Below are positions 224-18,338 of a stretch of 64,000 bases of DNA, piece after piece; within the stretch, counting starts at the first letter, position 1, and each line of letters opens with the position of its first letter. The stretch is from Actinomycetota bacterium (GTDB taxonomy: Bacteria > Actinomycetota > Actinomycetes > S36-B12 > UBA5976), in contig VFKC01000042.1 of NCBI GenBank assembly GCA_009885745.1, forward strand, positions 11,555 through 75,554, given 5' to 3'. The notes under the pieces are model-generated. The model was not told the DNA's origin, searched no databases, and saw only the letters and a program-made list of their open reading frames with translations. The translations under genes were made by a program, and so were the position numbers.

Positions 224-1903
224 ATGACCGAGCAAAATAAGGCCAAACCAGTACCTGTCAAAAAGGCGCAAGGACAATGGGGTCTTGGGTATCGTGAACC
301 ACTTAACCCCAACGAGCGGATGAAAAAGGACGATGATGGTCTAAATGTTCGGGCCAGAATCGAAAATATATATGCAAAAGGTGGCTTTGACTCTATTCCA
401 GCTGATGACCTTCGCGGACGCATGCGTTGGTGGGGTCTGTACACGCAACGCAAACCAGGTATCGATGGCGGTCGCACGGCAACTCTTGAGCCACATGAGT
501 TGGATGACAAGTACTTTATGCTGCGTATTCGAAGCGACGGCGGTCGACTGACCCTAGAACAACTACGCACAATTGCTGACATCTCTGTGGAATTTGCGCG
601 CGACACAGCAGATATCTCGGACCGTCAAAATATCCAATTACATTGGGTTGCTATTGAGGATGTTCCAGAGATTTGGCGTCGCCTTGAAGCTGTTGGTCTT
701 TCTTCAGCTGAAGCTTGTGGCGATGTGCCTCGCGTAATTTTAGGATCTCCAGTAGCAGGCGTGGCAGCCGATGAATTAATTGACGGCACGCCTGCTATCG
801 AGGAAATCCTGAGCCGCTATCTCCTTGATCCAGCATTCTCAAACTTGCCTCGTAAGTTCAAGAGTGCTGTTAGTGGCTCCCCTCGCCTAGATGTGGTCCA
901 TGAAATTAATGATTTGTCTTTCGTTGGTGTAATACATCCTGAACATGGTGTTGGGTTTGATGTCTGGGTTGGTGGTGGATTATCGACAAATCCTCACCTG
1001 GCTGTTCGATTGAACGCGTGGGTACCACTTGAAGATGTGCCTGAAGTTTGGGCAGGCGTTGTTGGCATATTTCGCGATTACGGTTACCGACGCATGCGCA
1101 CTAAGGCTCGTTTGAAGTTCTTGGTGTCCGACTGGGGGTCAGAGAAATTCCGTCAGGTACTAGAAGATGAATATCTCAAGCGCAAATTGATTGATGGACC
1201 TGCACCTCCTGAGGTAGCCTCTGATGCCCGTGACCATGTTGGTATTTACCCACAACAGGATGGACAGGTCTACGTCGGGGCTGCACCAAAAGTAGGGCGC
1301 ATGTCCGGAACTCGACTGAATCAAGTAGCTGATCTTGCTGAATCCGCAGGAAGCGATCGCGTACACCTAACTGCGCATCAAAAGTTCGTGATTCTTAACG
1401 TCAACCCTGATAAGGCCGATGCGCTAGTTGACGGCTTACAAGGCATCAATCTGGCCGTTGGAAACGCTAGTCGTTTTAGGCGCGGAACTATGGCTTGCAC
1501 TGGAATTGAATATTGCAAGTTGGCGATGGTGGAAACTAAAGGTCGCGCTGGCGAACTTATTGAGAAGCTTGAAGCCAAATTGCCCGATTTCAATCTCCCA
1601 CTTGCAGTTCACGTCAATGGGTGTCCGAATTCATGTGCACGGATCCAAGTAGCCGACATTGGCCTAAAGGGTATCCGAGCACTGGATAAAGATGGGAATG
1701 ACGTAGAAGGGTTCCAAGTCCACCTCGGCGGTCGACTAGGTCAGGGCGCAGAATTTGGTCGCACCGTAAAGGGTCTTCGTTTAGAGGCTGACAAACTTCC
1801 TGAATACGTTGAAGGACTGGTTGAGAAATTCTTAGAAGCTCGCGCCGATGAAGAATCATTCAGCCAGTGGGCGATGCGCGCAGACGAGGCCCTATTCCAG
1901 TGA
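224..1903 (+). CDS. sir: ferredoxin-dependent sulfite reductase (siroheme/[4Fe-4S], NirA/SirA type)
   Basis: 559-aa ORF with a purine-rich SD (AGAGGAAAAAC) before the ATG. Cys cluster CTGIEYCKLA ... NGCPNSCAR is typical of the siroheme-FeS site. Followed by cysH. Confidence 0.9.
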   Translation: MTEQNKAKPVPVKKAQGQWGLGYREPLNPNERMKKDDDGLNVRARIENIYAKGGFDSIPADDLRGRMRWWGLYTQRKPGIDGGRTATLEPHELDDKYFMLRIRSDGGRLTLEQLRTIADISVEFARDTADISDRQNIQLHWVAIEDVPEIWRRLEAVGLSSAEACGDVPRVILGSPVAGVAADELIDGTPAIEEILSRYLLDPAFSNLPRKFKSAVSGSPRLDVVHEINDLSFVGVIHPEHGVGFDVWVGGGLSTNPHLAVRLNAWVPLEDVPEVWAGVVGIFRDYGYRRMRTKARLKFLVSDWGSEKFRQVLEDEYLKRKLIDGPAPPEVASDARDHVGIYPQQDGQVYVGAAPKVGRMSGTRLNQVADLAESAGSDRVHLTAHQKFVILNVNPDKADALVDGLQGINLAVGNASRFRRGTMACTGIEYCKLAMVETKGRAGELIEKLEAKLPDFNLPLAVHVNGCPNSCARIQVADIGLKGIRALDKDGNDVEGFQVHLGGRLGQGAEFGRTVKGLRLEADKLPEYVEGLVEKFLEARADEESFSQWAMRADEALFQ

Positions 1904-2625
1904 CTCCAAATTCCGACATTCCAGCAAACGCAAAGCGCTCTCAAGACCACCTTAAGGTTTTGGCGCGCTATGCCGCAGTGGATTTGTCGGGTGCAAGTGC
2001 TCAAGAAATAATCCGATGGGCAAGTGAGGTATTCGCCTCGCGAGTGGTACTGACGCAGTCGATGGCAAATACCGTGTTGGCACATTTGGTTAATGATGTT
2101 GCACCCAATATTGATGTAATTTTCTTGGATACTGGAGTTCATTTTCCAGCAACGCTTGAGACTCGTGATCGTTTGATTGCCACAACAAACCTGCCCATAA
2201 TCAATTTGACTCCCTCCATGAGCCTTGCTGAACAGGCAGAAAAGCACGGTGCGGAACTCTGGAAAACCAATCCAGACCTGTGCTGTGCAATTCGAAAAGT
2301 GGAGCCAATGGAACAGGCTTTAGAAAACTATGATGCTTGGATTTCTGGAATGCGTCATGCCGCTGCCAAACAACGCAAATCTCGCAAGGTAGTTGAATAC
2401 GACTCTGAGAGAAACGTAATTAAGATTGCCCCGCTTTTGCATTGGTCAGACGAGCAACTCCTGCGATACACACTTGAAAATGATGTAGTTGTGAACCCTC
2501 TCATGTATCAGGGGTATCCATCAATCGGTTGTGTGCCTTGCACTAGGCGCATAGAACCAGGTGAAGATGTGCGAGCAGGACGTTGGAGTGGTTTAGGCAA
2601 AACTGAGTGCGGCTTACACACATGA
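1867..2625 (+). CDS. cysH: adenylyl-sulfate (APS)/PAPS reductase, thioredoxin-dependent
   Basis: C-terminal KTECGLH motif. The CC (DLCCAIRK) plus CVPC pair is typical of the FeS-containing APS-reductase subtype. An in-frame GTG at 1900 forms a GTGA overlap with the sir stop and may be the true start. Confidence 0.9.
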   Translation: MGDARRRGPIPVTPNSDIPANAKRSQDHLKVLARYAAVDLSGASAQEIIRWASEVFASRVVLTQSMANTVLAHLVNDVAPNIDVIFLDTGVHFPATLETRDRLIATTNLPIINLTPSMSLAEQAEKHGAELWKTNPDLCCAIRKVEPMEQALENYDAWISGMRHAAAKQRKSRKVVEYDSERNVIKIAPLLHWSDEQLLRYTLENDVVVNPLMYQGYPSIGCVPCTRRIEPGEDVRAGRWSGLGKTECGLHT

Positions 2626-3824
2626 CATATCCATTGCACCTTCACCTTGTCGGAAAAAAAGTTGTAGTAATCGGGGCGGGGCGAGTTGCCACTCGTCGCG
2701 TCTTGGAATTGGTTAAAGCCAATGCCCTAGTCACCGTCATTGCACCAGAAATTGGCTCAGTTATTTCTGGACTAGCAGCGGAAAACAAGATCGATGTTAT
2801 TCAAAGGAATTACTTCGTCGGAGATCTCCTGGGATCGTGGCTCGTGCACATTGCTACTAACGACGCCCTGACCAACGAGCAAGTGGCCAAGGATGCCTCG
2901 GAGTTACACATTTGGGCGATTCAAGCAGACAATGCGCTTGAAACAGATGCATCCACACCTGCAGTTGGTGCAGTTGATGACATTGCAATATCTGTGACCT
3001 CAGGTGACCCCGGACGAAGTGCCGCGTATAAAAATCAAATCATTGAACAACTCTCGCAAGGACTTCTGCACGAGCGACCGCGTCGACTAAAGGAAAATGG
3101 CTCAGTTGTTTTAATTGGTGCCGGTCCTGGCGATCCAGGATTGATTACAATTCGTGGATACCGGGCCCTACTTGACGCTGATGTGGTTGTCTTTGATCGA
3201 CTCGCACCAGCAGTCCTGCTAGACAATCTGCATCCAGACATAGAACTAATTGATGCCAGCAAGAGTCCTGGCAACCATGTCTTGACCCAAAATGAAATAA
3301 ATGACGTGCTTGTTTCAAGGGCAAAAGAAGGTCTGCGCGTAGTTCGTCTTAAAGGTGGCGATCCATTTGTCTTTGGTAGAGGTTCGGAGGAAGTGAATGC
3401 CTGCGTTCAGGCTGATATCCAAGTGGAAGTCATCCCAGGAATTTCGAGTTCTATTGCCGCGCCTAGTGCAGCCGGAATACCAGTCACACATCGTGGGCTA
3501 AGCACCGGGTTCACAGTAATAAGTGGACATCAAATTGACGACTTAAAAGGTGTAGTCACCTCTGGTCTGACAACTGTGGTCTTGATGGGTGTTGCCACCT
3601 TGGCGAATTTAGTCACTGAATTTACCAAGCATGGCGCTTCTCAATCAACACCCATTGCCATAATCGAAAATGCTTACTTACCTGAGCAAAAAACACTCAC
3701 CTCAACATTGGGTGACGTGGTTCATGATGCTCATCTGGCTAAAGTCACTAATCCAGCAGTGATTGTTATTGGGGAAGTAGTCCATGCAATTTCGCCCGAA
3801 ATACTCAGTGAGGTAACAAAATGA
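2607..3824 (+). CDS. cysG: siroheme synthase: Met8/CysG-N-like precorrin-2 dehydrogenase domain fused to uroporphyrinogen-III C-methyltransferase
   Basis: N-terminal Rossmann VVVIGAGRVATRRV. C-terminal SUMT motifs VVLIGAGPGDPGLIT and RLKGGDPFVFGRG. The ATG at 2622 gives an ATGA overlap with the cysH stop and is an alternative start. Confidence 0.9.
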   Translation: MRLTHMTYPLHLHLVGKKVVVIGAGRVATRRVLELVKANALVTVIAPEIGSVISGLAAENKIDVIQRNYFVGDLLGSWLVHIATNDALTNEQVAKDASELHIWAIQADNALETDASTPAVGAVDDIAISVTSGDPGRSAAYKNQIIEQLSQGLLHERPRRLKENGSVVLIGAGPGDPGLITIRGYRALLDADVVVFDRLAPAVLLDNLHPDIELIDASKSPGNHVLTQNEINDVLVSRAKEGLRVVRLKGGDPFVFGRGSEEVNACVQADIQVEVIPGISSSIAAPSAAGIPVTHRGLSTGFTVISGHQIDDLKGVVTSGLTTVVLMGVATLANLVTEFTKHGASQSTPIAIIENAYLPEQKTLTSTLGDVVHDAHLAKVTNPAVIVIGEVVHAISPEILSEVTK

Positions 3825-4528
3825 TTCCTGTAATCTTGCTAGCCCATGGCAGTCCAGATCCTCGCTCCTCACAAGACACTCGGGATTTGGCGGCTAAGGT
3901 CGCACAGCATATTGATCAGCTAGTTGTCCCGGCCTTCTTGGACAATAATGAACCCACATTGCTACAAACTGTGAACGAGTTAGCTAGCCATGGATTTACT
4001 TCAGCGCTCGTTTTCCCAGCCTTTTTAAGTCACGCTTTTCACGTTCGAGTTGATATTCCAGAAGCGGTTCATGAGGCAGAGTTAGCAACTGGCATGAATC
4101 TTTCAGTTGCTGATCCCATTGGTCCTGACGAGCAATTGCTTGAGGCACTTAACGAACTTATTCCCAGCGGGCCTGCAGTTTTGGCAACAGCTGGTACTTC
4201 CAATGTCAATGCCCAATGGGATTTTGAGCAACTTGCTCGGGTGTGGTCCAAACAGCGCAGCGAGCCCGTCTTAGTCGCATACGCCTCTCAGGCTAAACCG
4301 GATGTTCCTACAGCTATTGCCGAACTTGAGTCTCTCACTGGAAAAGTTGTTTCGGTTGGATCATTTGTCCTATTCCAAGGTGTGTTACCCGATCGAATAA
4401 AGACAGCTTCAGGCAATCGAATCTGCACCACTCCGCTTTGCGATTCCGATGTCCTAGTAAATCTCATTTCACAACGATTAAAAAAGGCTTTAGCTCAAGA
4501 GCTTCATCACTCGAAGGACGATTCATGA
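3821..4528 (+). CDS. sirB: sirohydrochlorin ferrochelatase (CbiX/SirB family)
   Basis: N-terminus VILLAHGSPDPRS is typical of CbiX. ATGA coupling to cysG. Sits inside the siroheme context. Confidence 0.7.
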   Translation: MIPVILLAHGSPDPRSSQDTRDLAAKVAQHIDQLVVPAFLDNNEPTLLQTVNELASHGFTSALVFPAFLSHAFHVRVDIPEAVHEAELATGMNLSVADPIGPDEQLLEALNELIPSGPAVLATAGTSNVNAQWDFEQLARVWSKQRSEPVLVAYASQAKPDVPTAIAELESLTGKVVSVGSFVLFQGVLPDRIKTASGNRICTTPLCDSDVLVNLISQRLKKALAQELHHSKDDS

Positions 4529-5766
4529 TGCTGTGCTTGAGTATAGAATTTCGCGACATATCGCATTCGAGCCGTGCATTTATTTCAAAAAATGTAGATG
4601 TTCTGGAAAATGCTTTTAGCAAGTTGATAGAGGTACATGGCTTTGTACCTCTATCAACTTGTGCCAGAGTGGAGTTTTATTTAGATGCAACCGACTACGC
4701 AATTGTGCATCGGACACTGAAAAACACTTTGGAACATCTGGGCTCAAATAATGATTTTGATATTCAGAAGAACCTAATTGTGCATCATGGCGCTGAGGCA
4801 GTAGAACATTTATTTAGAGTGACGGCTGGGCTTGAATCTCAGGTAATTGGTGAAACTGAAATTCTCGGACAAGTGAGATCAGCATTAGCGATTGCAAGAA
4901 CCAGCGGGAGACTTACACGACCTCTAGAACTAGCCTTTAGCCGGGCGATACATGTATCACGGCAAGCGCGAGCCACATTCTCAATGGGACAAAGAAGTTT
5001 GATTGATTCTGCACTTTCAAAGTTAGATCTTTCTAATGTCCAGCATGCAATTTTGATTGGTACAGGAAATTATGCTCAAGTATGCTCCCAAAGTTTACGA
5101 AGCAATGGCATCACTCAGATTGCTGGATTTTCGCCAAGCGGTCGTCAAAATGCAGAGCTTGATGTTGACTACTACTTGAAGTTTGAGGATTTAGTATCTG
5201 AACTACAGAAGGCCGATCTTGTAGTGACCTGTAGCGGGAATGACTCTCCTGTGATCACAGCATCCCAAATATCCAAAGTTGTCGGGATGCGCCAGAGCGA
5301 GATAACAATTGTTGACCTCGCACTAAGCGCTGATGTCAGCAGAGATGTTGATGCACTTGAAGGCGTTAAAGTCTTGCGACTTGCCAACATAAATTCTTTA
5401 GAAGGTGACTTCTCACAAGCCCAACAAATAATTGCTAAAGGCATTTCTGAGGTAATGCCAAGGATTACGAATACTGAACTAGATGACTTGATTGTCACAC
5501 TCCGCATGCACATCACGAAAATCGTTGAACAGCAACTACAGAGCAGTATGGTCGATTCAGCTTTAACCCATAAGTTAGTCCAAGCGCTCTTGCACGGTCC
5601 CACAATGCGCGCCAGAAGTGCAGCTGCCGTTGGTCGCCTAGATGAAATTCGCACTGCATTCTCGTCATTGTTTGGCATTGAAATATCTAGCGACGCGGAG
5701 ATAATAGAAATGACATTCACCAATTTAGATTTGCGCAGTTTCGAAGAGTTGCTTTCGGTATCGTAA
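4525..5766 (+). CDS. hemA: glutamyl-tRNA reductase
   Basis: Catalytic-Cys motif LSTCARVEFY and GLESQVIGETEILGQV. The ATG at 4525 makes an ATGA overlap with the sirB stop. The longer ORF from 4438 would only re-read the sirB 3' end in another frame. Confidence 0.85.
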   Translation: MMLCLSIEFRDISHSSRAFISKNVDVLENAFSKLIEVHGFVPLSTCARVEFYLDATDYAIVHRTLKNTLEHLGSNNDFDIQKNLIVHHGAEAVEHLFRVTAGLESQVIGETEILGQVRSALAIARTSGRLTRPLELAFSRAIHVSRQARATFSMGQRSLIDSALSKLDLSNVQHAILIGTGNYAQVCSQSLRSNGITQIAGFSPSGRQNAELDVDYYLKFEDLVSELQKADLVVTCSGNDSPVITASQISKVVGMRQSEITIVDLALSADVSRDVDALEGVKVLRLANINSLEGDFSQAQQIIAKGISEVMPRITNTELDDLIVTLRMHITKIVEQQLQSSMVDSALTHKLVQALLHGPTMRARSAAAVGRLDEIRTAFSSLFGIEISSDAEIIEMTFTNLDLRSFEELLSVS

Positions 5767-6690
5767 ATGTCATCTGCAATTAAGTTAGGCACAAGGTCAA
5801 GCGCTCTAGCACTATCTCAATCAGGACATGTAGCGGCAAGTTTGCGCGAACTGGGACATGAAGTAGTAATTGTTCCGATGTTATCTCCTGGGGATTTGAA
5901 TACAATTCCTCTTTCCGGACTAGGTCAAGAGGGTATTTTTGTCTCATCAGTTCGCGAAGCACTCTTGAATAGTGAAATAGACATCGCCGTTCATTCGTTC
6001 AAAGATGTGCCTACCAATCCAGCACAAGGGATTTGGCTTGGCGCCGTGCCATTACGCGTTGACCCCAGAGATACTTTAGTTTCGAGATGGAAGTCCCTCT
6101 CTGATTTACCAATCGGTGCTCGAGTAGGTACTTGTTCAGTGCGTCGCGAGGCTTGGGTGTCTAGAAATCGCTCTGATCTCCAAGTGGTGGCTATTCGAGG
6201 AGACATTAACAAACGAATTGCTGCAATGCACAGCGGCGAATACGACGCCATAATCCTGGCAGCAGCTGGACTTCTCCGTAACGACTTAACCAGTGAAATT
6301 TCACAATTTATTGAAATTAGAGATTTAGTGCCTGCGCCTGCACAGGGCGCATTGGCTGTTGAGTGCCGAAATAGCGACGCGAAAATCAAACAATTTTTAA
6401 CTCAGATTAACCACTTTGAGTCATTGAATGCAGCGCTACTGGAACGCCGTATTTTTAGTCGAATCGACGAAAATGACAACACTGCTTTTGGCGTTCTTGC
6501 GGAATTTGCGACAGATTGGATCCGAGTCGTAGCGGACATTAGTAATCCCGACGGTAGTAATCGACTACTGCTTGAAGAAACTGAACACTTCGCAAACACA
6601 TCCGAAACTCAGGCCGCTATGCAAACACTCGAAGAGAAGATTGTCGCGCAACTTAAATCGCATCAGACTTCGCTGGGAAATGTTATCTAA
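5767..6690 (+). CDS. hemC: porphobilinogen deaminase (hydroxymethylbilane synthase)
   Basis: KLGTRSSALALSQ N-terminus and HSFKDVP motif. The ATG directly follows the hemA TAA. Confidence 0.9.
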   Translation: MSSAIKLGTRSSALALSQSGHVAASLRELGHEVVIVPMLSPGDLNTIPLSGLGQEGIFVSSVREALLNSEIDIAVHSFKDVPTNPAQGIWLGAVPLRVDPRDTLVSRWKSLSDLPIGARVGTCSVRREAWVSRNRSDLQVVAIRGDINKRIAAMHSGEYDAIILAAAGLLRNDLTSEISQFIEIRDLVPAPAQGALAVECRNSDAKIKQFLTQINHFESLNAALLERRIFSRIDENDNTAFGVLAEFATDWIRVVADISNPDGSNRLLLEETEHFANTSETQAAMQTLEEKIVAQLKSHQTSLGNVI

Positions 6691-7466
6691 TGTCTAAGGT
6701 GTTACTCGTGCGAGATATCAGCGCCATGGACTTGGATGCTCAAGCCCTGAAAGCACGCGGCTACGAAACTGTGATTGACCCATACATAGATGTGTCAACC
6801 TCGAGTGACGAACAAGTGCTTTCGAGAGTTGATGAGCTCTTGGGTGGTTTGAAATTGCCAAATTGTTGGTTCATATTGACTTCAGCGGCAGGCATTCGAG
6901 CGCTTCAAGAAATCTTGGGGTTCGGGCATTTGAGTGAAATTTTGCAGCAAGCACAAGTTGACGGAGTGCAATTTGCTGCGGTTGGACCAACCTCGGCAAA
7001 AGCAATTCAGGAACTAGGCGTAACGCAAGTCTTGTATCCCGAAGCAGCCCATACTGCCGCTGAACTCTTCGTCATTTTGGAAAGCAAATCTCCCGGCATT
7101 GCCGTTATCCCGCGTAGCTCGATTGGGAGCACCTATCTGCCTGAAAGCCTCAGCAATAAGGGCTGGTCTGTGTTACAAAGAACTGTTTATGAAACGACAA
7201 CGGTCATTGAAACACCATCGAGTGTAGAGTCACTAAAAGCGGGTCAATTTGCCGCAGTTGTTTTCCGCTCCCCCTCTGCAGCGCGCGCAGTCATCGGGCA
7301 CTGCGGCGCAGTACCACTCGAAACTGCTGTAATTGCCACTGGAACGACGACGGCTAAGGCTCTACTGGACCTCGGCTGCCATGTAACTGGAATATCGGTT
7401 GGCACTGCCGCTGCAGACATTGCTGATTGCATAGACAGCGCATTGGCTAAGACTGGTGCAAAGTAG
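6690..7466 (+). CDS. hemD: uroporphyrinogen-III synthase
   Basis: 258-aa HEM4-sized ORF between hemC and hemB, with a TAATG overlap with hemC. The call rests mainly on position and size. Confidence 0.7.
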   Translation: MSKVLLVRDISAMDLDAQALKARGYETVIDPYIDVSTSSDEQVLSRVDELLGGLKLPNCWFILTSAAGIRALQEILGFGHLSEILQQAQVDGVQFAAVGPTSAKAIQELGVTQVLYPEAAHTAAELFVILESKSPGIAVIPRSSIGSTYLPESLSNKGWSVLQRTVYETTTVIETPSSVESLKAGQFAAVVFRSPSAARAVIGHCGAVPLETAVIATGTTTAKALLDLGCHVTGISVGTAAADIADCIDSALAKTGAK

Positions 7467-8478
7467 TATGCCTAATGTGGATGACACTGAGTTCGAGCAT
7501 TTAACTCACAGGCCGAGGCGCTTGCGCAGAAGTGCCGGCATTCGTCGACTTGTCCAGGAAAACCGACTTTTTGCGGCAGATTTAGTTCTGCCAGTTTTTG
7601 TCCGAGAAGGCCTTAAGCAACCACAACCAATCTCGAGTATGCCGGGTGTTGTGCAACATTCATCGGAGTCTTTTGTAAATGTAGTTGAAGAAGCACTGGC
7701 TAATGGGGTCGGCGGGCTGATGATATTCGGTGTGCCGGTCGAGCGCGATGAAAATGGTGACTCGGCCTGTGATCCTCAGAATGTGCTTGCCCAATCTATT
7801 CGAACTGCAAAAGCAATTGTTGGTGAAAATCTGCCAATTATCGCCGACCTATGCCTTGATGAATTCACCACACATGGTCACTGTGGCGTCTTAGACACAC
7901 ATGGAAATGTTGACAATGATTTAACACTTACCATCTACCAAAAAATGGCAATCATGCTAGCGGAAGCTGGTGCTGACATTTTGGGGTTAAGCGGAATGAT
8001 GGATGGCCAAGTGGGTGCTGTTCGTCGGGCACTTGATGAAGTTGGTCACCGAGACGTCGCACTTTTGGCCTACACCGCAAAGTACGCTTCTGCTTTTTAC
8101 GGGCCATTTCGCGATGCCGTCGATTCCCAACTCAAGGGAGATCGCCTCACCTACCAACAAAATCCTGCGAACGTTATCGAGTCACTCAGGCAAGCACACC
8201 TTGATGCGGCACAAGGCGCAGACATTGTCATGGTTAAACCTGGGTTGCCGTACTTGGACGTTCTTCATCAAGTATCAAAATCCGTACCAGTACCCGTTGC
8301 TACCTACATTGTTTCCGGTGAATACTCCATGATTGAATTCGCGGCTCAGGCAGGAGCGATTGATCGAATCCCCGCAATATTTGAGGCTCTGACAAGCGCA
8401 AAGCGTGCAGGTGCCAACATCATTGTCTGCTACTGGGCCATGGAAATTGCCACAATTTTGTCAGCTGAAAAACGATGA
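7456..8478 (+). CDS. hemB: porphobilinogen synthase (ALA dehydratase)
   Basis: HRPRRLR motif, metal site DLCLDEFTTHGHCG and active-site Lys region MVKPGLPYLD. Start is either GTG 7456 or ATG 7468. Confidence 0.9.
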   Translation: MQSSMPNVDDTEFEHLTHRPRRLRRSAGIRRLVQENRLFAADLVLPVFVREGLKQPQPISSMPGVVQHSSESFVNVVEEALANGVGGLMIFGVPVERDENGDSACDPQNVLAQSIRTAKAIVGENLPIIADLCLDEFTTHGHCGVLDTHGNVDNDLTLTIYQKMAIMLAEAGADILGLSGMMDGQVGAVRRALDEVGHRDVALLAYTAKYASAFYGPFRDAVDSQLKGDRLTYQQNPANVIESLRQAHLDAAQGADIVMVKPGLPYLDVLHQVSKSVPVPVATYIVSGEYSMIEFAAQAGAIDRIPAIFEALTSAKRAGANIIVCYWAMEIATILSAEKR

Positions 8479-9785
8479 ATAACCTAAATTCAGAGGCATT
8501 CTTCAATCGTGCTCAAAAAGTGATTCCTGGCGGAGTTAGTTCACCAGTAAGAGCCTTCAAATCTGTTGGTGGGATTCCGCGCTACGTTGCAAAAGCAATT
8601 GGCTCAACAGTATCTGACGTTGATGGTAATAATTATGTTGATTTAGTAGGGGCATGGGGCCCGATGATTTTAGGTCATGCCCATCCTGCAGTTGTTGATG
8701 CGGTGAGAAGTGTTGCTGAAAAATCATTTTCATATGGCGCTCCTTGTGCCCCTGAAGTTGAACTTGCCGAAGAAATTGTGAAACGAGTAGGCCCGGTGGA
8801 ACGGGTACGTTTCACAAACTCAGGGACAGAAGCAGTCATGACTGCTATCCGTATCGCGAGGGCCAAAACCGGGAGAAACACAATTGTGAAGTTTGCTGGT
8901 TGCTACCACGGCCATGCAGACGCGATGTTGGTAGCCGCTGGATCTGGCGCAATCACTTTGAGCATGCCTGATTCACAGGGCATCCCGCAATCCGTAGCAG
9001 ATGACACTCTAGTAATTCCCTATGGCGATGTCAGTGCTTTGCAGGAAATTTTTTCAGCCAAAGGACATTTGATTGCAGCCGTAATTACTGAGGCTGCTCC
9101 GGCAAACATGGGAGTGGTTGTTCCACCTGCTGGGTTTAATGCTTTAATCTCACAATTGACCAAGACCTACGGCGCACTATTTATTCTTGACGAAGTCATG
9201 ACCGGATTTAGAGTGAGTGTCGCAGGCTGGTGGGGCCTTGATGGCAAAAATGAAAATTGGGCTGCTGATCTCTTCACTTTTGGCAAAGTGATTGGCGGAG
9301 GCATGCCACTGGCCGCGGTAGCCGGGAGTGCTGAATGTCTTGACTTACTGTCTCCCCTAGGTTCGGTTTATCAGGCTGGAACACTTAGCGGCAATCCGAT
9401 TGCAACGACTGCCGGCCTGACGACGTTACAACATTGCACGACAGAGACTTACGAGACGTTAAACAAGAATGCCCAAGAAGTGGGTTCAATAGTTAGCCGA
9501 TCCTTGTTTGCTGCTGGAGTTTCACACCAACTGCAGACTGCAGGCAATTTGTTCAGTGTCTTCTTTACCGAAAATCCAGTGCTGAATTTCGCCCAAGCCA
9601 AATTGCAAAACGCTAACGCATACGCAACTTTCTTTCACGAGATGCTTGCCGCAGGTGTTTGGTTGCCACCATCCGCTTTCGAATCTTGGTTCGTATCTTG
9701 CGCACTGACTCATGATGACTTTGAGATTATCGAGAAGGCTTCAAAGCAAGCAGCAAACGCTGTTGCAAGCACCCTTGCTGAATAA
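8475..9785 (+). CDS. hemL: glutamate-1-semialdehyde 2,1-aminomutase
   Basis: Class-III aminotransferase motifs, with the PLP lysine in FGKVIGGGMP. ATGA overlap with hemB. Confidence 0.9.
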   Translation: MNNLNSEAFFNRAQKVIPGGVSSPVRAFKSVGGIPRYVAKAIGSTVSDVDGNNYVDLVGAWGPMILGHAHPAVVDAVRSVAEKSFSYGAPCAPEVELAEEIVKRVGPVERVRFTNSGTEAVMTAIRIARAKTGRNTIVKFAGCYHGHADAMLVAAGSGAITLSMPDSQGIPQSVADDTLVIPYGDVSALQEIFSAKGHLIAAVITEAAPANMGVVVPPAGFNALISQLTKTYGALFILDEVMTGFRVSVAGWWGLDGKNENWAADLFTFGKVIGGGMPLAAVAGSAECLDLLSPLGSVYQAGTLSGNPIATTAGLTTLQHCTTETYETLNKNAQEVGSIVSRSLFAAGVSHQLQTAGNLFSVFFTENPVLNFAQAKLQNANAYATFFHEMLAAGVWLPPSAFESWFVSCALTHDDFEIIEKASKQAANAVASTLAE

Positions 9786-9820
9786 ATCATCCAAGAAATG
9801 ATAAGAACTTAAAGTTCAAC

Positions 9821-10333
9821 TTAGTTGAGATAGATTCGATCCAACATCATCACCTTGTCCCAAGCAGCGACAAAATCCTTGACGAATTTCTCGCTTGCAT
9901 CAGCACTGGCATAAACCTCGGCCACTGCACACAACTGTGAGTTTGAACCAAAAACCAAATCAACTCTACTTCCAAGCCACTTCACTGTTGATGATGAATG
10001 CGGACGTCCTTCCAACATCTCAGCACCTGTTGATTTTGGTTCCCAATCGATGTTCATGTATAGCAAATTAACAAAAAGTCATTGGTCAAGCCCTCAACTT
10101 GTTCGGTCAAGACACCAACCTGTGAATTGCCGGTATTTGCACCAAGTACGCGTAGCCCATCGACAAGGACTGTAATTCCCGGAGCAGTCCGAGTCAATAA
10201 GTACGCACTTTCGATTAGCAGGAATTCTGCTGCAAGACTTTTAGATTCAGCTGATTAGGCCACTATCTTGATTGTCCTTGCGCACGTTTACTTGTTTTGC
10301 ACTTGGATATGGGCATTTACTTTCGCTGTCCAT
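9821..10333 (-). pseudogene. katG: catalase-peroxidase KatG relic: about 40 N-terminal codons fused to about 145 C-terminal codons, with at least two frameshifts
   Basis: Minus-strand translation from ATG 10333 (AAGGAG SD 7 nt upstream) gives MDSESKCPYPSAKQVNVRKDNQD. After a frame slip it gives [14 protein letters not shown]. It then continues as [52 protein letters not shown]. After another slip it reads [12 protein letters not shown]...[48 protein letters not shown]. Confidence 0.85.
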
Positions 10334-10345
10334 GACGACTCCTTA

Positions 10346-10394
10346 TTTACACGATAGATATTGACACGATATATAACTTGACAAGATAGATAAC
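10346..10394. repeat. three tandem direct repeats of a 17-bp unit TTGACA(C/A)GATA(T/G)ATAAC (first copy 15 bp)
   Basis: tttacacgatagata / ttgacacgatatataac / ttgacaagatagataac, read directly. They lie 13-61 bp upstream of the katG-relic start codon. Confidence 0.8.
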
Positions 10395-10545
10395 TTTAAA
10401 ATCTACTCAAGAGACATTTAAAAAATTTGCAGAATCTTTATCTTTCTGTCCTGTAAGTTCAGGCTAACTAAGTAAAACATTTCTGTCTGAGACTAGGCAG
10501 CTCTTTTTGACCGATACAAATCATTATCCAAAAATCTGTCTCGCC

Positions 10546-12075: not shown

Positions 12076-12143
12076 AGGGTTTAAGGTCCTGCAATCAGTT
12101 AGTCCACGCCAGTTTTTGTGTGAGTCAAAACAAAGGAAATATC

Positions 12144-15100
12144 ATGCAGATTTCACCCAAAGCCACTATCAGCACACTTTTAACTATTCTTTTGTTGATT
12201 TCAGGAGTTGCTATCCCAAACAGCGCCACAGCAAAGACAAATGTTGCCGATAGGGACCTAGCCGCAGAAGTAACAAGTGACGCGATTGTTACAGCGATTA
12301 CTCCAGAAGCTGGAAGTGGAATTGACAATATTTATATCAGTTGGGAATCTGAAGGTACTGACCCAATTTTTTCCGAAGAAGATCCGGATAGCGATCCTCT
12401 TCCATCTGCATATTTTGTCGTGACCGTTGAAGGTGGCGGCTTTGCCAAGTGTGATAGCTCGCTTCCAAATGTCGGTACACATGAAATGGCATTTGACGAG
12501 ACAGGTGACGTTACTTGTCGTGTTGGTGGCCTAGAACTTGATCGAACTGTCGCAATTACGGTGACACCTTTTATCGCTGCTCAAAATGAAGATGAAGTTG
12601 ATGCGATGGGGACATCATTTACGACGGAGTACACAGCCATAGAAGAACCTAATGCCCCAGCAGTCACTGCAACAGTTAGCTCCGCGCGAGAAAGAATCAC
12701 AATTAACTGGACCGCTGGCGCGAATTCTGATGCGGTGAACGGTTGGCGAGTAGATACAGGCGATTTAACCGTAGACGGGGCAGGCACTTGCACATTTTGG
12801 GATGAGAGTTTTGACGACGATACCCAAGAAACGATGTATACCGATACTGGCGAATCATTAGATCTAAACGAAAGTTCATGCTATATCCCGAATGATAACT
12901 ATGATTCTGAAGCGGCTTACGCAATTGTTGTAACACCCATTTACGGTGATTCATTTTTAGCCGGTCCCTTTGGAGCGACATTTATTGGCGCAAAAGCCTC
13001 GGCAACTCCGGGCTTTATCACTGATTTCAGTGTGGCTACCTCTGGCGCAAAAGCAGCAAAAGTTTCGTGGAAAATTCTGGGAATGGCTGGGGCACCCGCA
13101 CTTACCTCTCAAACTGTCAGTGCATTTGACCCGGAAGATACCAGCGATGAGCCTCAAGTATTGGATAAGTGTCTTTTACTTAAAACAACGGATCGTACCT
13201 GCACGCTTACCAAACTCGTTGCGGGCAAGAACTACTTAGTAATCGTGACTGCTGAGAACGAAAATGGGCCAATTGACAACACCGCTTATCCATGGAGTTT
13301 TTACACTCATCCGGTTCCGCCTGACGCACCAAAAGATTTTACCGCAACTGATTACGGAACTGAACTGGTATTCGATTGGAATCCAGGTTGGAATGGTGGC
13401 TCAGCCCTAACTAAATACACTTTGACCGAAGTTGGATCCAACACTCCTGTTTGTGGAACTATTCCTGGCACAGCCATATCTTGTGTGTTCAAGGGAACTA
13501 GTCTGACCAAATCCGAGTACAACTTTGAGTTGATTGCAACAAATGGGTCAAGCTTTAGCGAGCCAGTTACCACCGAGTTTTTCCCGGTATTTCCTGAAGC
13601 AGTATCTAACATTGCTGTTTCGATTACAGGCAAGACCACTGCGGATGTTGTGTGGACTTCAGCATTAGATGCAGCTTCGTATGAAGTGACAGTTAACGGC
13701 AAGGTCGTCGTATGTCCAGAGATTGAAGAGCCGGAGATTGAAGATGAGAGCCAACAAATAGATCCAGATCTTGAACCAGTTGAAGAGCCAATCTCAGACC
13801 AAAACATCTGCACTATTTCAGATTTAGTTTCCAAAAGGACCTACACAATTGGCGTGCAGTCTGTTCGCTGGAATGCCGAATCTGCGATTACCACGACTTC
13901 ATACGTTCACCCATCGGGTCCAACAGTTGGGGTTAGTGTTTATGAAATTGGCGCGAATGGTCGATCCGCAATACTCGAGACAATCGTTGTCAACGAAAAC
14001 AATAATCTTGCGACCTCTTACGTAATCACAACTCAAAATCTGGCCGATGATTCAGTTGTGGACACTCGGGATTGCCCAGAAACACTTTGTGTAATTGAGG
14101 GGCTTTTACCTGGTAACAAGTACAAGTTCTCCGTGGTTGCATCCAACATAGCTGGCTCTTCAACACCGCAGTCCGTCATCGCTACTATGCCAAGCGTGCC
14201 ATCATTTCCCGAAGCCGTTGAAGTACAGGCCACTGCCCCGAACACTGCTGAGGTAACTTGGGGCAAAGTGAAACGCGCTAATTCTTACCTAATTTCTGTG
14301 ACGAACAATGGGCAGACCCAAACTTTCAACACTCAGGAAAATTCAATCAGCATTGATGTGGAAAGCGCACAGACTTACTCAATTTCTGTCGCGGCGATTA
14401 ACGCCGTTGGTCAAGGTCCAGAATCAGCAACAATTAATTACACGCATCCACTTGCACCAGTTGCACCCACTGCAATCCGAGCATTTAGCGAGTCGCTTAC
14501 CTCGGCACTCGTAACTTGGACTGCGAGCAATTCAAAAAATGGTGGACCAGTTGATAGTTACTTGGTTCAGGCCTACTTTAATGGCGAGCTGGTTTCTAGT
14601 TGCCAACCAACAAAAGCGACAATATGTTTACTTCCCGGACTTGAGAGCCAAATCTATGACATTCGGGTTACCGCACAGAATGTCATCGGTACCAGCCCTA
14701 CAGCAAATTATTCATATCAGGCTCCTACTGCCCCTAGTGCGCCAATAGTGTCAGCCGAGGCTTTGAAAAATGATATGTGGAAATCAGCCAAGATTGCCTG
14801 GCGCGTCACTGAAACAGGTGGGCTGCCAATCAAATCGATAACTATCAGTGCCAAAAGCGGCCAAGAGAATGTCAGCATCTCAGGCTCTTGTAGCACTCTG
14901 GCTGTAATGGCATCCGATTGTGTTTTAACGGGTCTAACCGCCGGCAAGGAATATCAGGTAAGTGTGACTATCGCTAATAGCGCCGGCCGGACAACGTCGG
15001 AGACTTCGGTCAAAATCCCGGACACTCCAGCGCCAGTAACCAACATATTGGCAACTCAAACAGATGCAGACAGCGCAAACATCGTGTGGACAAAGTCTCA

Positions 15101-18100
15101 AAATGCTGAATCTTATTCGGTGAAGGTATTGGACATCGATGGTAAGGCAGTGAACTGCATCGGTGGAAATATCACCTACCAACCAACTTGTTTGCTGGAT
15201 GGACTTAACGGCGGTGAGGCGCATTCAATTTCAGTGATTGCTAACTCAAAGGGCATCGGCCAGAGCATTGAGGCGTTTTCTTCATACACTCAGCCAGTTA
15301 TTGTAAACCAATATCAGATTTCCGCCGAGGTCAATCCGGTTAATACCTCAATCCTCAATCTATATTTCACAGCCTTAGACTCAAGCGGTTCAAGTGTTCT
15401 TCCTAAGCCCAATGTGTTCGTGTATAAGATCGACGGAAGCACTAAGGAGCTCATTTGCACAACAACTTCCCTTGGTACCACATGTGAAATGCAGAACCCT
15501 CTCTCACCTGGTGACATTGTTGGAGGAACTTATACCATTGCCGCAAGAGGCATAAAGGCCAATGTTCAAAAAATCCGTGCTATCCGATCGGTAGTAGAGC
15601 CTCCAGCGGAAGATTCTGGTTCATTCAATATTTTGATTCCACTTCCAGCCACCGAGGTTACAAATCTAGATGTGGTTTCACTTTCTCCAACTTCAGCTCT
15701 GGCTTCTTGGGATTCAATTGAAGATACAAGTGTGACTTATGACGTCACAGTTGATGGAAACCTAGTTTGCGAAGACATCACCGAGGCAGAGTGTGAAATC
15801 GCTAACGAACCTGGTGCCCAGTCAGTGATAGTTTCAGTTACAGCGAAGAATCTAACGGGCGAATCAAGCCCCGTCACATTTGATTACGCTGCGCCAGAAA
15901 TGCCAAAGGAACCAACGGACATTGTTTTCGAGACTAATAGCTCGGGATCCATGTTGACCACTTGGTCCGATGAAGCAAATAGTGTCGCTACTACTTACTC
16001 CGTCAAGCTCGATGGTGAAATAATCAGTGAGTGCATCGACCTCGTAAATCCAGTCTGTCTTGTTTCCAATCTTGTGCCAGGTGGCCAGTACCAAATCACA
16101 GTAATCGCTAAGAATATTCTTGGATCCGCCGAAGCCAGCGCCGCACTGGTACAGCCGCTACCCGCAACTGCCCCAATCGTGCAAGCGGAGGTATCTGAAG
16201 ATGGAACTTCTATTCATTTCAGTTGGCTAATTCCTGATACTGGTGGGGCAAAACCTACTGATATCGAGATTCGACTTAACCCCAGCCAAGGAACAACCGG
16301 ATGTTCTGAAATTGACGTGGAAGCAAGTTCCTGCGATCTTGAGGGACTTGTTGCCGGCGTGAACTACACATTTGCTGTTCGCTTGGTCACCGAAGTTGGT
16401 GCAGGTTCATTTGGGTTTGCTTCTGCATCAGCTGGAGAATTACTGGAGTCTCCCGAGAATGTGTCTATTTCTCGGATTGGCGATAATCAGGCTTTCATTA
16501 CTTGGGACGGCTTAGAAAGTGCTGATAGTTACCAGGTTTATGTCAATGGGGAACTAAATGATGTTTGTTCAACTTCAGAAACAAGTTGCACAATTGACAT
16601 CGATGCCACCGAGCCTCTAACAGTAATGGTCTCAGGTGTGAATAGATTCAGTACCAGCGGACTAGCAAAATCTGCCTTAGCGGGGCGCACAGTCATTGGA
16701 CCCAAGCGGGTGGTAGCAGTTTCGAGTGCTGATGGTCGTTCCGTGCTCTTAAGTTGGAAAGCAGACCTAACGACAGCGTCCCAAGAAGTTGAATACGCAG
16801 CTGCAACAGGCATTGCTGGGTGTAGCGATTTAGCGGCATCAACTAGTTCATGCACAATTACTGGCTTAACCCCCGGCACTTCATACTCATTCGTGCTTCG
16901 CACTTATGATGCGGATTCTGTGCTTAATGAATCCGAAGTTATTGCCAACACAAAGGTGCTTCCAACACCTAAGGCTGCTTCGGGATTGGCTGTCGCACTG
17001 GTTAAGAAAGTTGCGACACTAACTTGGGTTTCTTCAGTTGCTCAGATTACAAACAAGGCAGCGCTACCAACATATAGCGTGACACTAAATGGCAAGGCTG
17101 TTAAGTGCAAGATTGAGGCAGCAACGCCATCATGTGCTCTCGGCAAACTTGCGGGCACAGCCAAATATTCGGCAAAGGTCACGGCCAAACTCGGCACAAA
17201 ATCTGCTGTATCGAAAGAGTTCAAGTTCACCGCAAAGTCCGTTGCTAAGGTCGGATTCTTAACTTCGAAGCTGACTACAAGTGGCGCAACTCTTACTTGG
17301 CAGGACCTTCCAAAGATGAAGGCAAGTGCAATTACGGTGGCAGTTTCGCCAAAGGCAACTGGTTGCAAACCAGTGGTTGCCACTGCCAAGAATTGTGCCC
17401 TAACTGGATTGGTCCCTGGAACTTCATACACAGCCACAGTGACTATCAAACATAAGAAGGGTGCGGCAACGAAGATTGTCCGCAACTTTGTCGCTCCCCC
17501 AGCACTATCGGCACCTGCGGATCTTGATGTGCAACTAACCGGTGACAACCAAGCTCGTGTTTGGATCACTCCAGGCTTCGATTCAGTCGGAAGTAGCTAT
17601 GTGTGTTCAGCAACTAACAAAGCACTCACCATTACATTTGATGCGACAACTACCAGTTGCTTGATTTCTAACATCTATTCGGCAACTGTTGCTGATGTTT
17701 CAGTTTATGCAAAGAACGGTGCAAGCAAGAGTTCGCCAAGTTCCGTTACTTGGAAAGCTCCTACAGCGCCTAGAGCAGTTACTGATTTAGAAGCAAACAT
17801 TAAATCAGGATTTGTCACCGTGTCTTGGCTACCAAGCACTAGTGGCAACCAGAACATTACTGGCTACCGGATTACTTCAGCGAAATCTGCTTCGGTTGTT
17901 GTTGATGCAACTACCTTCAGCCGAAAGATTGCTGTTACTGGGGTAACTCCTGGATCTGATGTGACCTTCATCGTGGTGGCATTGAGTCAAGTTGGTGATG
18001 GTACCACTGCAAATGTGATTGCCACGGCACTTGCCCTACCATCCACTGTAGATTCAGACACTATTTTAGGTGACTGGACTAGTGCTTCTTCGGCCACAAT

Positions 18101-18338
18101 TTCTTGGCAGAGCGTTGAATCTAATGCTGACTATGAAGTAAGTATTTCAAGTACCGGTAGTAGCACTACGAAGGCTTGCGAGACTCATGCAACAGCATGT
18201 TTGCTAACCGAGTTGTCGAAGAATAAGGACTATACGATCACAGTGACCGCAATCAATGCAGCGGGATCCACTACTAGTGCCACAGTCATCTGGCATCAAG
18301 GTGCCTCCAATGATGATTCAGAGCTAACGGCTCCATAG
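12144..18338 (+). CDS. giant secreted/surface protein of about 21 tandem fibronectin-type-III-like repeats
   Basis: 6.2-kb ORF. ATG 12144 has an AAAGGA SD and a Sec-type signal (MQISPKATISTLLTILLLISGVAIPNSATA). Roughly 90-100-aa repeats each carry a W early and a Y-x-[IFV]-x-V-x-A-x-N-x-x-G-like tyrosine-corner motif late. The ORF-track start GTG 12120 is less likely. Confidence 0.85.
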   Translation: MQISPKATISTLLTILLLISGVAIPNSATAKTNVADRDLAAEVTSDAIVTAITPEAGSGIDNIYISWESEGTDPIFSEEDPDSDPLPSAYFVVTVEGGGFAKCDSSLPNVGTHEMAFDETGDVTCRVGGLELDRTVAITVTPFIAAQNEDEVDAMGTSFTTEYTAIEEPNAPAVTATVSSARERITINWTAGANSDAVNGWRVDTGDLTVDGAGTCTFWDESFDDDTQETMYTDTGESLDLNESSCYIPNDNYDSEAAYAIVVTPIYGDSFLAGPFGATFIGAKASATPGFITDFSVATSGAKAAKVSWKILGMAGAPALTSQTVSAFDPEDTSDEPQVLDKCLLLKTTDRTCTLTKLVAGKNYLVIVTAENENGPIDNTAYPWSFYTHPVPPDAPKDFTATDYGTELVFDWNPGWNGGSALTKYTLTEVGSNTPVCGTIPGTAISCVFKGTSLTKSEYNFELIATNGSSFSEPVTTEFFPVFPEAVSNIAVSITGKTTADVVWTSALDAASYEVTVNGKVVVCPEIEEPEIEDESQQIDPDLEPVEEPISDQNICTISDLVSKRTYTIGVQSVRWNAESAITTTSYVHPSGPTVGVSVYEIGANGRSAILETIVVNENNNLATSYVITTQNLADDSVVDTRDCPETLCVIEGLLPGNKYKFSVVASNIAGSSTPQSVIATMPSVPSFPEAVEVQATAPNTAEVTWGKVKRANSYLISVTNNGQTQTFNTQENSISIDVESAQTYSISVAAINAVGQGPESATINYTHPLAPVAPTAIRAFSESLTSALVTWTASNSKNGGPVDSYLVQAYFNGELVSSCQPTKATICLLPGLESQIYDIRVTAQNVIGTSPTANYSYQAPTAPSAPIVSAEALKNDMWKSAKIAWRVTETGGLPIKSITISAKSGQENVSISGSCSTLAVMASDCVLTGLTAGKEYQVSVTIANSAGRTTSETSVKIPDTPAPVTNILATQTDADSANIVWTKSQNAESYSVKVLDIDGKAVNCIGGNITYQPTCLLDGLNGGEAHSISVIANSKGIGQSIEAFSSYTQPVIVNQYQISAEVNPVNTSILNLYFTALDSSGSSVLPKPNVFVYKIDGSTKELICTTTSLGTTCEMQNPLSPGDIVGGTYTIAARGIKANVQKIRAIRSVVEPPAEDSGSFNILIPLPATEVTNLDVVSLSPTSALASWDSIEDTSVTYDVTVDGNLVCEDITEAECEIANEPGAQSVIVSVTAKNLTGESSPVTFDYAAPEMPKEPTDIVFETNSSGSMLTTWSDEANSVATTYSVKLDGEIISECIDLVNPVCLVSNLVPGGQYQITVIAKNILGSAEASAALVQPLPATAPIVQAEVSEDGTSIHFSWLIPDTGGAKPTDIEIRLNPSQGTTGCSEIDVEASSCDLEGLVAGVNYTFAVRLVTEVGAGSFGFASASAGELLESPENVSISRIGDNQAFITWDGLESADSYQVYVNGELNDVCSTSETSCTIDIDATEPLTVMVSGVNRFSTSGLAKSALAGRTVIGPKRVVAVSSADGRSVLLSWKADLTTASQEVEYAAATGIAGCSDLAASTSSCTITGLTPGTSYSFVLRTYDADSVLNESEVIANTKVLPTPKAASGLAVALVKKVATLTWVSSVAQITNKAALPTYSVTLNGKAVKCKIEAATPSCALGKLAGTAKYSAKVTAKLGTKSAVSKEFKFTAKSVAKVGFLTSKLTTSGATLTWQDLPKMKASAITVAVSPKATGCKPVVATAKNCALTGLVPGTSYTATVTIKHKKGAATKIVRNFVAPPALSAPADLDVQLTGDNQARVWITPGFDSVGSSYVCSATNKALTITFDATTTSCLISNIYSATVADVSVYAKNGASKSSPSSVTWKAPTAPRAVTDLEANIKSGFVTVSWLPSTSGNQNITGYRITSAKSASVVVDATTFSRKIAVTGVTPGSDVTFIVVALSQVGDGTTANVIATALALPSTVDSDTILGDWTSASSATISWQSVESNADYEVSISSTGSSTTKACETHATACLLTELSKNKDYTITVTAINAAGSTTSATVIWHQGASNDDSELTAP

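Follow-up and report, generated by a model that had tools for sequence, protein, structure and literature searches.

The gap between hemL and a gene for a PLP-dependent decarboxylase was analysed in a 64-kb stretch of actinobacterial DNA, which is called the window here. In the window, the G+C content is 47-48%, coding sequence makes up 94% and the gaps between genes have a median of 71 bp; at 760 bp, the hemL-decarboxylase gap is the largest non-coding stretch. Read on the minus strand, positions 10333-9821 within this gap correspond to residues 1-38 of a catalase-peroxidase (KatG) joined to its last ~136 residues, in four successive frames. This katG relic is 513 bp long, with ~174 codons left in the four frames. 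The relic and its surroundings are made up of the following features, in which L165 denotes a contig of a sister species that carries an intact katG, and L081 and L167 denote two contigs that carry the same relic:

8475..9785, plus strand: hemL (glutamate-1-semialdehyde aminomutase), convergent with the relic, 35 bp from the katG stop
9821..10333, minus strand: the whole katG relic, from the start codon to the original stop of a former catalase-peroxidase gene of ~2,190 bp
10265..10333, minus strand: segment A, codons 1-23 (MDSESKCPYPSAKQVNVRKDNQD) in the ATG frame, aligned with L165 KatG residues 1-23
10221..10262, minus strand: segment B, Trp25 to Ser38 in a second frame, its protein identical to L165 KatG residues 25-38
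10073..10230, minus strand: segment C1, 52 residues in a third frame, up to a shortened T run; positions 591-642 of the PRK15061 model
9821..10072, minus strand: segment C2, in a fourth frame (the ATG phase) and including the TAA stop; positions 645-724 of PRK15061
10339..10344, minus strand: Shine-Dalgarno AAGGAG of the former katG, also present in the sister species (AATAAGGAGTnnTCATG)
10346..10392, minus strand: tandem repeat, three copies of a 15-nt unit that reads TATCTATCGTGT[C/A]AA in the katG sense, directly upstream of the Shine-Dalgarno
10334..10545, minus strand: former katG upstream region, with 6 SNPs and one 2-bp indel in 212 bp relative to L081/L167
10546..12006, minus strand: Orn/Lys/Arg-type PLP decarboxylase, the upstream neighbor and syntenic anchor, with 88% amino-acid identity to the sister species

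Identity of the relic and its intact ortholog

The strings of KatG residues were reproduced by three-frame translation of the minus strand of 9780-10460. The former start codon (ATG, 10333-10331) opens MDSESKCPYPSAKQVNVRKDNQD, the former stop codon (TAA) lies at 9823-9821, and segment C2 contains an 81-aa ORF with a TTG start, for which an exact look-up returned nothing on record. When the segments are stitched together, the resulting 174-residue peptide matches KatG chains in the PDB at E=4e-51 (phmmer), with relic residues 1-39 on KatG 1-37 and residues 34-172 on KatG 588-726 of a 728-residue chain. The stitched peptide likewise matches PRK15061 (NCBIfam) at E=9e-53; taken separately, the two C-terminal pieces give 8.6e-14 and 1.4e-27, and the N-terminal piece alone gives a weak 1.4e-3. 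On the 725-position catalase-peroxidase profile, the pieces occupy positions 3-35, 591-642 and 645-724, and positions ~36-588 are absent. KatG proteins are modeled as TIGR00198 and PRK15061 in NCBIfam and by two occurrences of PF00141 in Pfam. A full-length, two-domain KatG of ~720-750 aa is expected to score above the curated cutoffs, whereas the relic scores 179.6 versus 981 bits for PRK15061 and 166.5 versus 770 bits for TIGR00198. A sequence-only reading of this DNA had recognized the N-terminal and extreme C-terminal blocks of KatG behind an intact Shine-Dalgarno (10344-10339) and ATG; both signals are in place, and the attribution to KatG is borne out by the PDB and NCBIfam matches as well as by the comparison with an intact ortholog.

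The intact ortholog is encoded by L165 (ENA ERZ27315751, contig k119_323491, 32.7 kb), which was found by searching from the decarboxylase flank after synteny anchored on hemL had proved uninformative. This contig carries an intact KatG of 729 aa in the gene order giant Fn3 protein, decarboxylase, TehB-like methyltransferase, katG, followed by TrkA and peptide ABC-transporter genes. Like the relic, the L165 gene has the giant Fn3 protein and the decarboxylase as upstream neighbors, the same Shine-Dalgarno/ATG context and the same lineage-specific strings. Unlike the relic, it has its full length and encodes every catalytic motif, a TehB-like methyltransferase stands between it and the decarboxylase, and TrkA lies downstream where the window has hemL. 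Identity between the relic and L165 KatG is 134/172 residues (77.9%), amounting to 89% in the N-terminal piece (32 of 36 residues) and 75% in the C-terminal pieces. By these shared features, L165 KatG is clearly orthologous to the relic. No KatG closer than this 78%-identical protein was found in the non-exhaustive searches made; a protein search with the C-terminal part of the relic, which topped at ~65%, missed L165 as well.

Taken together, the features expected of a unitary pseudogene are found at this locus, namely an intact syntenic ortholog, reproducible lesions and decay without purifying selection, the latter two being described below. With a probability of about 0.93, the region is thus a pseudogene without function, left behind by a katG that had been inherited vertically.

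Lesions and the deletion junction

Alignment with the syntenic L165 locus resolves three lesions, all on the minus strand:

10263..10264: lesion 1, the 'AG' that is left of the Trp24 codon TGG after deletion of one base and a G-to-A change; frameshift
10221..10232: lesion 2, the deletion junction, one surviving copy of a direct repeat (CAGCAGAATTCC) with 1,675 bp missing
10073..10077: lesion 3, one T lost from a run that spans two Phe codons and is now T5; frameshift

At lesion 1, the ortholog reads GAC TGG TGG CCA (GACTGGTGGCC) and the relic GAT AG TGG CCT (GA-TAGTGGCC). At lesion 3, TTC TTC of the ortholog (GATTTCTTCATC) is aligned with TT- TTT of the relic (GACTT-TTTGTT). With these two single-base deletions and the internal one, the length of the relic relative to intact L165 katG closes exactly (2190 - 1675 - 1 - 1 = 513 bp). 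The sequence-only reading had described each of these injuries, and all of them can now be placed: the damaged Trp-Trp codons, where the first Trp codon is cut to 'AG' and the text resumes in the next frame; the direct jump near 10222-10235, which is the junction at 10221-10232; and the slip in the run at 10073-10077, one base short of the ortholog. Its estimate of an internal deletion of 1.6-1.7 kb compares with the 1,675 bp measured against L165 katG, and its minimum of two frameshifts with the two single-base deletions that accompany the deletion of 1,675 bp, itself frame-shifting.

The missing 1,675 bp correspond to codons ~39-592 plus one base. KatG enzymes bind heme in a pocket that comprises a distal Arg-Trp-His, a proximal His and a Met-Tyr-Trp adduct, and this pocket is lacking from the relic. 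In the ortholog, the catalytic motifs FIRMAWHSAGTYR (distal site) and TVALIAGGHTFGKAHG (proximal His, GGHTFGKAHG), whose residues we take to be the distal Arg-Trp-His and the proximal His of established KatG biochemistry, lie within residues 39-592, which is the deleted interval. Since the heme-pocket motifs fall inside this interval, catalase or peroxidase activity is impossible, and the remnant is predicted to make no enzyme.

The deletion is bounded by a short direct repeat. The repeat is 11-12 nt long, CAGCAGAATTC(C), and the junction copy CAGCAGAATTCC translates to Q-Q-N-S when read in the frame of the N-side and to (A)-A-E-F in that of the C-side. In the L165 ortholog, CAGCAGAATTC is present at katG nt 1778, within CCA GCA GAA TTC (P-A-E-F), and the homologous sequence at nt 103 is CAACAAAACTCA (Q-Q-N-S), with four synonymous differences. 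These differences break the N-side copy, and L165 katG has no direct repeat of at least 11 nt. The spacing of the two sites in the ortholog is 1675, that is, 1 mod 3, and it is because of this distance that the frame changes at the junction. The 12-nt junction matches the C-side DNA of the ortholog at 11/12 bases, and its N-side QQNS is the same in the ortholog. As the junction codes for both the N-side and the C-side residues, and neither set is one that the opposite side could have yielded by chance, both ancestral sites would have carried nearly the same sequence; the ancestral N-side copy is deduced in this way, and the pre-deletion sequence has never been directly seen. An 11-nt repeat in a gene of katG size is unremarkable in itself (~0.6 expected), but this one would be the longest in the gene and would hence lend itself best to slippage.

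Direct repeats are known to give rise to RecA-independent deletions in bacteria, by slipped-strand or short-homology events. As in such deletions, the endpoints of the relic's deletion lie at a short repeat, a single copy is kept at the junction, the loss is of kilobase scale and there is no filler, with the exact length accounting leaving no base for inserted or mobile-element DNA; the C-side copy is seen in the ortholog, and the N-side copy is the reconstructed one. From this scar, we infer a slippage or microhomology mechanism. The katG of the species' ancestor would by chance have held the 11-12-nt direct repeat CAGCAGAATTC(C), with one copy at codons 35-38 (Q-Q-N-S) and the other at codons ~593-596 (P-A-E-F), 1,675 bp further downstream and in another reading frame. 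A slipped-strand or microhomology-mediated deletion between the copies would then have removed one copy together with the whole interval, which took in all of the catalytic N-terminal domain and roughly half of the C-terminal one, and shifted the frame. A one-base deletion in the Trp24 codon (with the G-to-A change) and another in the T run would have completed the inactivation, and the three events may have occurred in any order. The remnant would subsequently have drifted neutrally, and it presumably persists since deletion has yet to remove it.

Two JGI metagenome contigs, L081 and L167, carry all three lesions exactly as the window does. L081 comes from a co-assembly of High-Arctic Lake A (3300033064) and is 99.57% identical to the window over 10.2 kb, while L167 (sample 3300032607) is 99.4% identical. 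The three contigs differ at SNPs elsewhere, and no two of them encode the same decarboxylase protein. The window may come from the same lake as L081, in which case the two would be less independent than they seem. One frameshift lies in a homopolymer run and the window itself, whose HemL is identical to a protein on an NCBI contig of 80,341 bp, probably derives from a metagenome-assembled contig. Both would suit the explanation that the cell has an intact gene, broken only by misassembly or homopolymer errors. This explanation is effectively refuted. The same deletion and both frameshifts recur in three contigs that have SNPs elsewhere and stem from the NCBI record and no fewer than two JGI data sets, and identical lesions in separately assembled contigs are not those of an assembly artefact. 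In addition, the remnant holds substitutions of the kind that follows relaxed constraint, which assembly error could not produce.

Neutral decay, probable age and fixation of the loss in the sampled haplotypes

Between the window and the haplotype shared by L081 and L167, the relic differs at 4 of 513 positions (0.0078), which compares with dS 0.0076 and dN 0.0021 in the flanking genes. Of these four SNPs, two replace a residue radically at a site that is invariant in the family (Leu to Arg in LLTLTAP; Arg to Cys in SQLRA), and in both cases the window haplotype has the derived state. Within the population, the relic is thus seen to be still collecting radical substitutions. The same pattern is found over the longer time since the split from the sister species. 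Relative-rate counts of replacements specific to the relic and to the ortholog are 17:5, 18:4 and 20:5 with the nearest outgroups (p = 0.003-0.02), so that the branch of the relic has 3-4 times more amino-acid changes than that of the ortholog, and 44/44 outgroup KatGs are closer to the L165 ortholog than to the relic. At near-invariant columns (at least 90% conserved), the relic departs at 10 of 59, compared with a mean of 1.95 and a maximum of 7 among the 44 intact KatGs; at invariant columns, it departs at 3 of 30, where the maximum for an intact KatG is 1. The dN to L165 is 0.136 for the relic versus 0.069 for the neighboring decarboxylase, with dS saturated at ~1.6. These counts are small and show direction rather than a precise dN/dS, and they indicate that the relic is evolving neutrally, without purifying selection.

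The rate of decay also bears on whether the remnant still encodes something of use, be it a regulatory RNA or a short protein such as that of the 81-aa C-terminal ORF. Its Shine-Dalgarno and ATG have survived intact and are shared with the sister species, and an isolated C-terminal domain of KatG is known to be stable in the case of E. coli (PDB 1u2j and 1u2k, both among the matches of the relic). Residual function is nevertheless highly improbable: translation from the ATG stops after 31 codons, the 81-aa ORF begins at a TTG inside the old gene with no Shine-Dalgarno seen before it, and the remnant is less than half of the C-terminal domain. Moreover, the divergence of the relic equals dS and includes radical changes at invariant residues, and neither the relic nor the upstream region contains an Rfam element at E<=1. 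A family of continuous 'mini-KatG' proteins was also searched for and does not exist. Three candidates (L085, L091 and L126) seemed continuous across the junction, but their ORFs are full-length KatGs or are cut by a contig end, and the apparent continuity reflects a faint resemblance of ...FRNYLNKAVQEPAEF... to the 14-residue relic string.

The excess of replacements in the relic, about 13-15 over ~397 non-synonymous sites, suggests as a rough estimate that ~0.03-0.04 substitutions per site have accumulated since constraint was lost. Of the branch that dates from the sister-species split, this makes up a few percent, and the loss of katG would thus be late. The estimate is also ~ten times as large as the dS per lineage among the relic haplotypes sampled (0.004) and somewhat above the per-lineage divergence (0.022) to a more divergent lineage, L084 (dS 0.044). 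From these values, we infer that katG was lost recently relative to the species split, that the loss is older than the sampled strain diversity and that it is fixed in the sampled haplotypes. The sequence-only reading had proposed that the gene was lost fairly recently and that the event was still in progress. The first proposal stands insofar as the loss falls late on the species branch but must be qualified in that it predates the divergence of the sampled strains. The second does not agree with the data, as all lesions are shared by three of three junction-spanning haplotypes and the estimated age is ~ten times their per-lineage dS.

It could still be supposed that the loss is polymorphic, with intact alleles persisting in the same species. 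Only three junction-spanning haplotypes were recovered, among them two with the same relic haplotype, and the L084 contig ends after covering just the last 77 bp of the relic, with no decarboxylase-side contig from the L084 sample in the cluster. The L084 lineage or other populations might therefore keep an intact katG at this position, which would leave the loss unfixed species-wide, but this is rather unlikely. Every spanning haplotype carries all three lesions, the age estimate exceeds even the per-lineage divergence to L084, and no KatG nearer than the sister ortholog was found, in searches that were non-exhaustive. An exact search for the junction 35-mer in metagenome contigs gave 0 matches and has no bearing on prevalence, as it also missed L081, in which the junction is unchanged.

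Genomic context and the meaning of katG loss

Gene content around the relic does not point to a functional link with the tetrapyrrole genes. Upstream of hemL, the window encodes sulfite reductase, PAPS reductase, a siroheme-synthase-like protein, CbiX, hemA, hemC, hemD and hemB, and hemL is the last gene of this sulfite-reductase/siroheme/hemACDBL cluster. By its gene content, this is a sulfite-reduction/siroheme plus early-tetrapyrrole cluster and not a complete heme pathway. Among the matches listed for 80 hemL loci from other actinobacteria, katG was found within 10 kb of hemL in none (0/80), and neither the decarboxylase nor the giant protein was found within that distance (0/80), in a set from which close relatives may be missing. 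In the sister species, katG adjoins TrkA and transporters rather than hemL, and the adjacency of the relic to tetrapyrrole genes is thus a lineage-specific rearrangement. The sequence-only reading had treated the position next to a heme operon as meaningful; with katG followed by TrkA in the sister species, no katG at the hemL loci listed and an incomplete cluster, the adjacency appears to be without evident functional meaning.

The former upstream region has changed as well. The sister species has its extra TehB-like methyltransferase gene where the window has 10334..10545, and no remnant of such a gene was found in what was the katG promoter region of the window. The 15-nt tandem array is not in the intact sister locus and differs between haplotypes, and most of the differences in 10334..10545 fall inside it. 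Promoter and terminator scans of the region gave counts no higher than those of shuffled sequence.

The nearest HemL proteins from reference genomes share just 62-68% identity with that of the window and belong to Candidatus Nanopelagicales, Nanopelagicaceae or Actinomycetota MAGs, which suggests that the host is an under-sampled planktonic actinobacterium in or near Nanopelagicales. The window also encodes a beta-carotene dioxygenase.

Loss of katG is known from other bacteria with reduced genomes. In Mycobacterium leprae, which has a reductive genome, katG is a recognizable pseudogene with deletions and frameshifts. Both cases concern an actinobacterial katG kept in recognizable form, but M. 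leprae lives as an obligate intracellular pathogen and has undergone massive pseudogenization throughout its genome, whereas the relic is isolated in compact surroundings. Loss of katG in Prochlorococcus is said to be the founding Black Queen example, put forward by Morris et al. in 2012, with helper dependence reportedly shown by experiment. Prochlorococcus is a streamlined plankter without catalase-peroxidase that relies on the community for H2O2 removal. Its katG is simply absent, with no relic or visible deletion mechanism known, while the host of the window keeps a scar and its dependence on helpers is hypothetical.

Removal of H2O2 by KatG is a leaky function, which is what the Black Queen idea requires: neighbors would detoxify H2O2, loss of katG would be favored and the organism would come to depend on its helpers. 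The window is compact (94% coding), and none of its ~53 ORFs encodes another catalase, peroxidase or peroxiredoxin. In its strict form, this explanation, which the sequence-only reading had invoked, is plausible for the relic but less likely than not. Favored loss and merely tolerated loss leave the same sequence signature, and the view is limited to 64 kb, such that AhpC, other catalases or a second katG may be encoded elsewhere. The lake from which L081 originates is perennially ice-covered, and low photochemical H2O2 there would give plain relaxed selection instead. In freshwater Nanopelagicales (acI), the presence and absence of katG is patchy and has been discussed as Black Queen gene loss (PMC7527133; Kim et al., bioRxiv 10.1101/343640). 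Like the host of the relic, these are planktonic actinobacteria of the same order-level neighborhood. The acI reports, however, describe clean absence ('repair cassette without katG') or intact genes of low activity and not a decaying remnant, and they place katG in a DNA-repair cassette or close to a tRNA, neither of which is the setting of the relic. Members of acI (Nanopelagicaceae) have also been reported as heme auxotrophs, in contrast with the presence of hemA, C, D, B and L in the window.

A second functional katG or another catalase elsewhere in the genome, for example a xenolog acquired horizontally, could alternatively have made this copy dispensable. Within Nanopelagicales, katG has been reported to fall into two groups that are phylogenetically distinct and show evidence of horizontal transfer, and replacement is therefore a known pattern for the wider group (PMC7527133). 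Such decay of a redundant copy is unlikely, since the 64-kb window holds no second copy and compact genomes seldom keep paralogs.

Whichever pressure was at work, the relic itself is an ordinary pseudogene formed by a well-known mechanism, and it involves no new kind of biology. The acI catalase paper makes no mention of a pseudogene, and a decaying katG remnant in the neighborhood of Nanopelagicales appears to be undescribed in the literature searched. Only if an intact allele were still segregating within the species would the relic gain in interest. In that case, it would offer a natural within-species pair with and without katG, with a datable scar, in a relative of acI that bears tetrapyrrole genes, and the frequency-dependent coexistence of helpers and beneficiaries expected under the Black Queen idea would be directly testable in polar-lake time series. 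As it stands, the relic points to a lineage in which early tetrapyrrole and siroheme genes are retained while a major heme enzyme has been discarded. Loss of katG in streamlined plankton is usually inferred from absence, whereas here the surviving scar shows the mechanism, the ancestral state and the rough timing of the loss. The relic thus offers a useful, concrete case to draw on when reductive evolution and the Black Queen idea are discussed for the neighborhood of Nanopelagicales.

Deletion junction and former katG promoter

The junction left by the deletion in the dead katG, the catalase-peroxidase pseudogene, contains an EcoRI site (GAATTC, 10225-10230). Because environmental contigs L081 and L167, which carry the same lesions, share an identical junction, this site was rejected as a sign of cloning and is a coincidence of the repeat sequence. 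Immediately upstream of the Shine-Dalgarno sequence of the dead gene lies the following array:

10346-10392, three tandem 15-nt units

The excess variation of the former promoter falls mostly within this array. In L081, from High-Arctic Lake A, it is near-perfect (units TATCTATCGTGTCAA, TATCTATCGTGTAAA, and TATCTATCGTGTAAA), whereas the window copy is more degenerate and features a 2-bp insertion. The units are not present at the intact sister-species locus, L165. The array may once have served as an operator, or it may be debris left by slippage during or after silencing.

Locus structure relative to the sister species

In the sister species, a 203-aa TehB-like SAM methyltransferase is encoded between the PLP decarboxylase and katG (L165, 9788-10399; L166, 3323-3889), whereas the window counterpart of this interval (10334-10545) spans just 212 bp and has no detectable remnant of the methyltransferase. 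Either the window lineage underwent a second, older deletion here, or the sister lineage gained an insertion. On the other side, synteny is lost ~15 bp beyond the katG stop codon (window 9786-9820 versus L165 12752-13204), which places a rearrangement endpoint directly beside the gene that later died. Past this break, the window leads into the convergent hemL; in the sister species, the genes that follow are an 87-aa ORF, TrkA_N, and a peptide ABC transporter.

A further gene retains its position in both species:

12120-18338, giant 2,072-aa secreted-type protein with many fibronectin type III repeats

Its sister counterpart has 2,080 aa, yet identity is only 70% with a dN of 0.19, and it is diverging far more rapidly than the neighboring genes.

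A large protein-database search with the C-terminal part of the relic gave nothing above ~65% identity among the matches listed, and the 78%-identical KatG ortholog on L165 was not among them; absences in this search and in the genome-collection scan hold only among the matches listed, which are not exhaustive.

Tetrapyrrole genes and other genes of the window

224-9785, contiguous cluster of sulfite reductase, PAPS reductase, siroheme-synthase-like protein, CbiX, hemA, hemC, hemD, hemB, and hemL
22524-23495, beta-carotene 15,15'-dioxygenase family protein (Pfam BCD, E=5e-28)
51971-55078, adjacent ComEC-like and ComEA-like genes
27597-28091, 33854-34195, 62491-63081, and 63347-63964, four ORFs of 113-205 aa with no significant Pfam or NCBIfam family

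Among the four ORFs, only the last has any match, a weak, sub-threshold one to the Rv1815-type serine proteinase model. The ComEC-like protein (791 aa, Competence and metallo-beta-lactamase domains) and the ComEA-like protein (243 aa, SLBB and helix-hairpin-helix) form a pair indicating predicted DNA-uptake machinery in a compact genome.

No late heme steps are encoded within the 64-kb window. While heme biosynthesis is reported missing from acI Nanopelagicaceae, the presence of the tetrapyrrole cluster means that this acI relative retains at least the early tetrapyrrole and siroheme branch. The dioxygenase gene points to a capacity to make retinal and, through it, to possible use of light by a rhodopsin, in which this lineage would resemble other planktonic actinobacteria.
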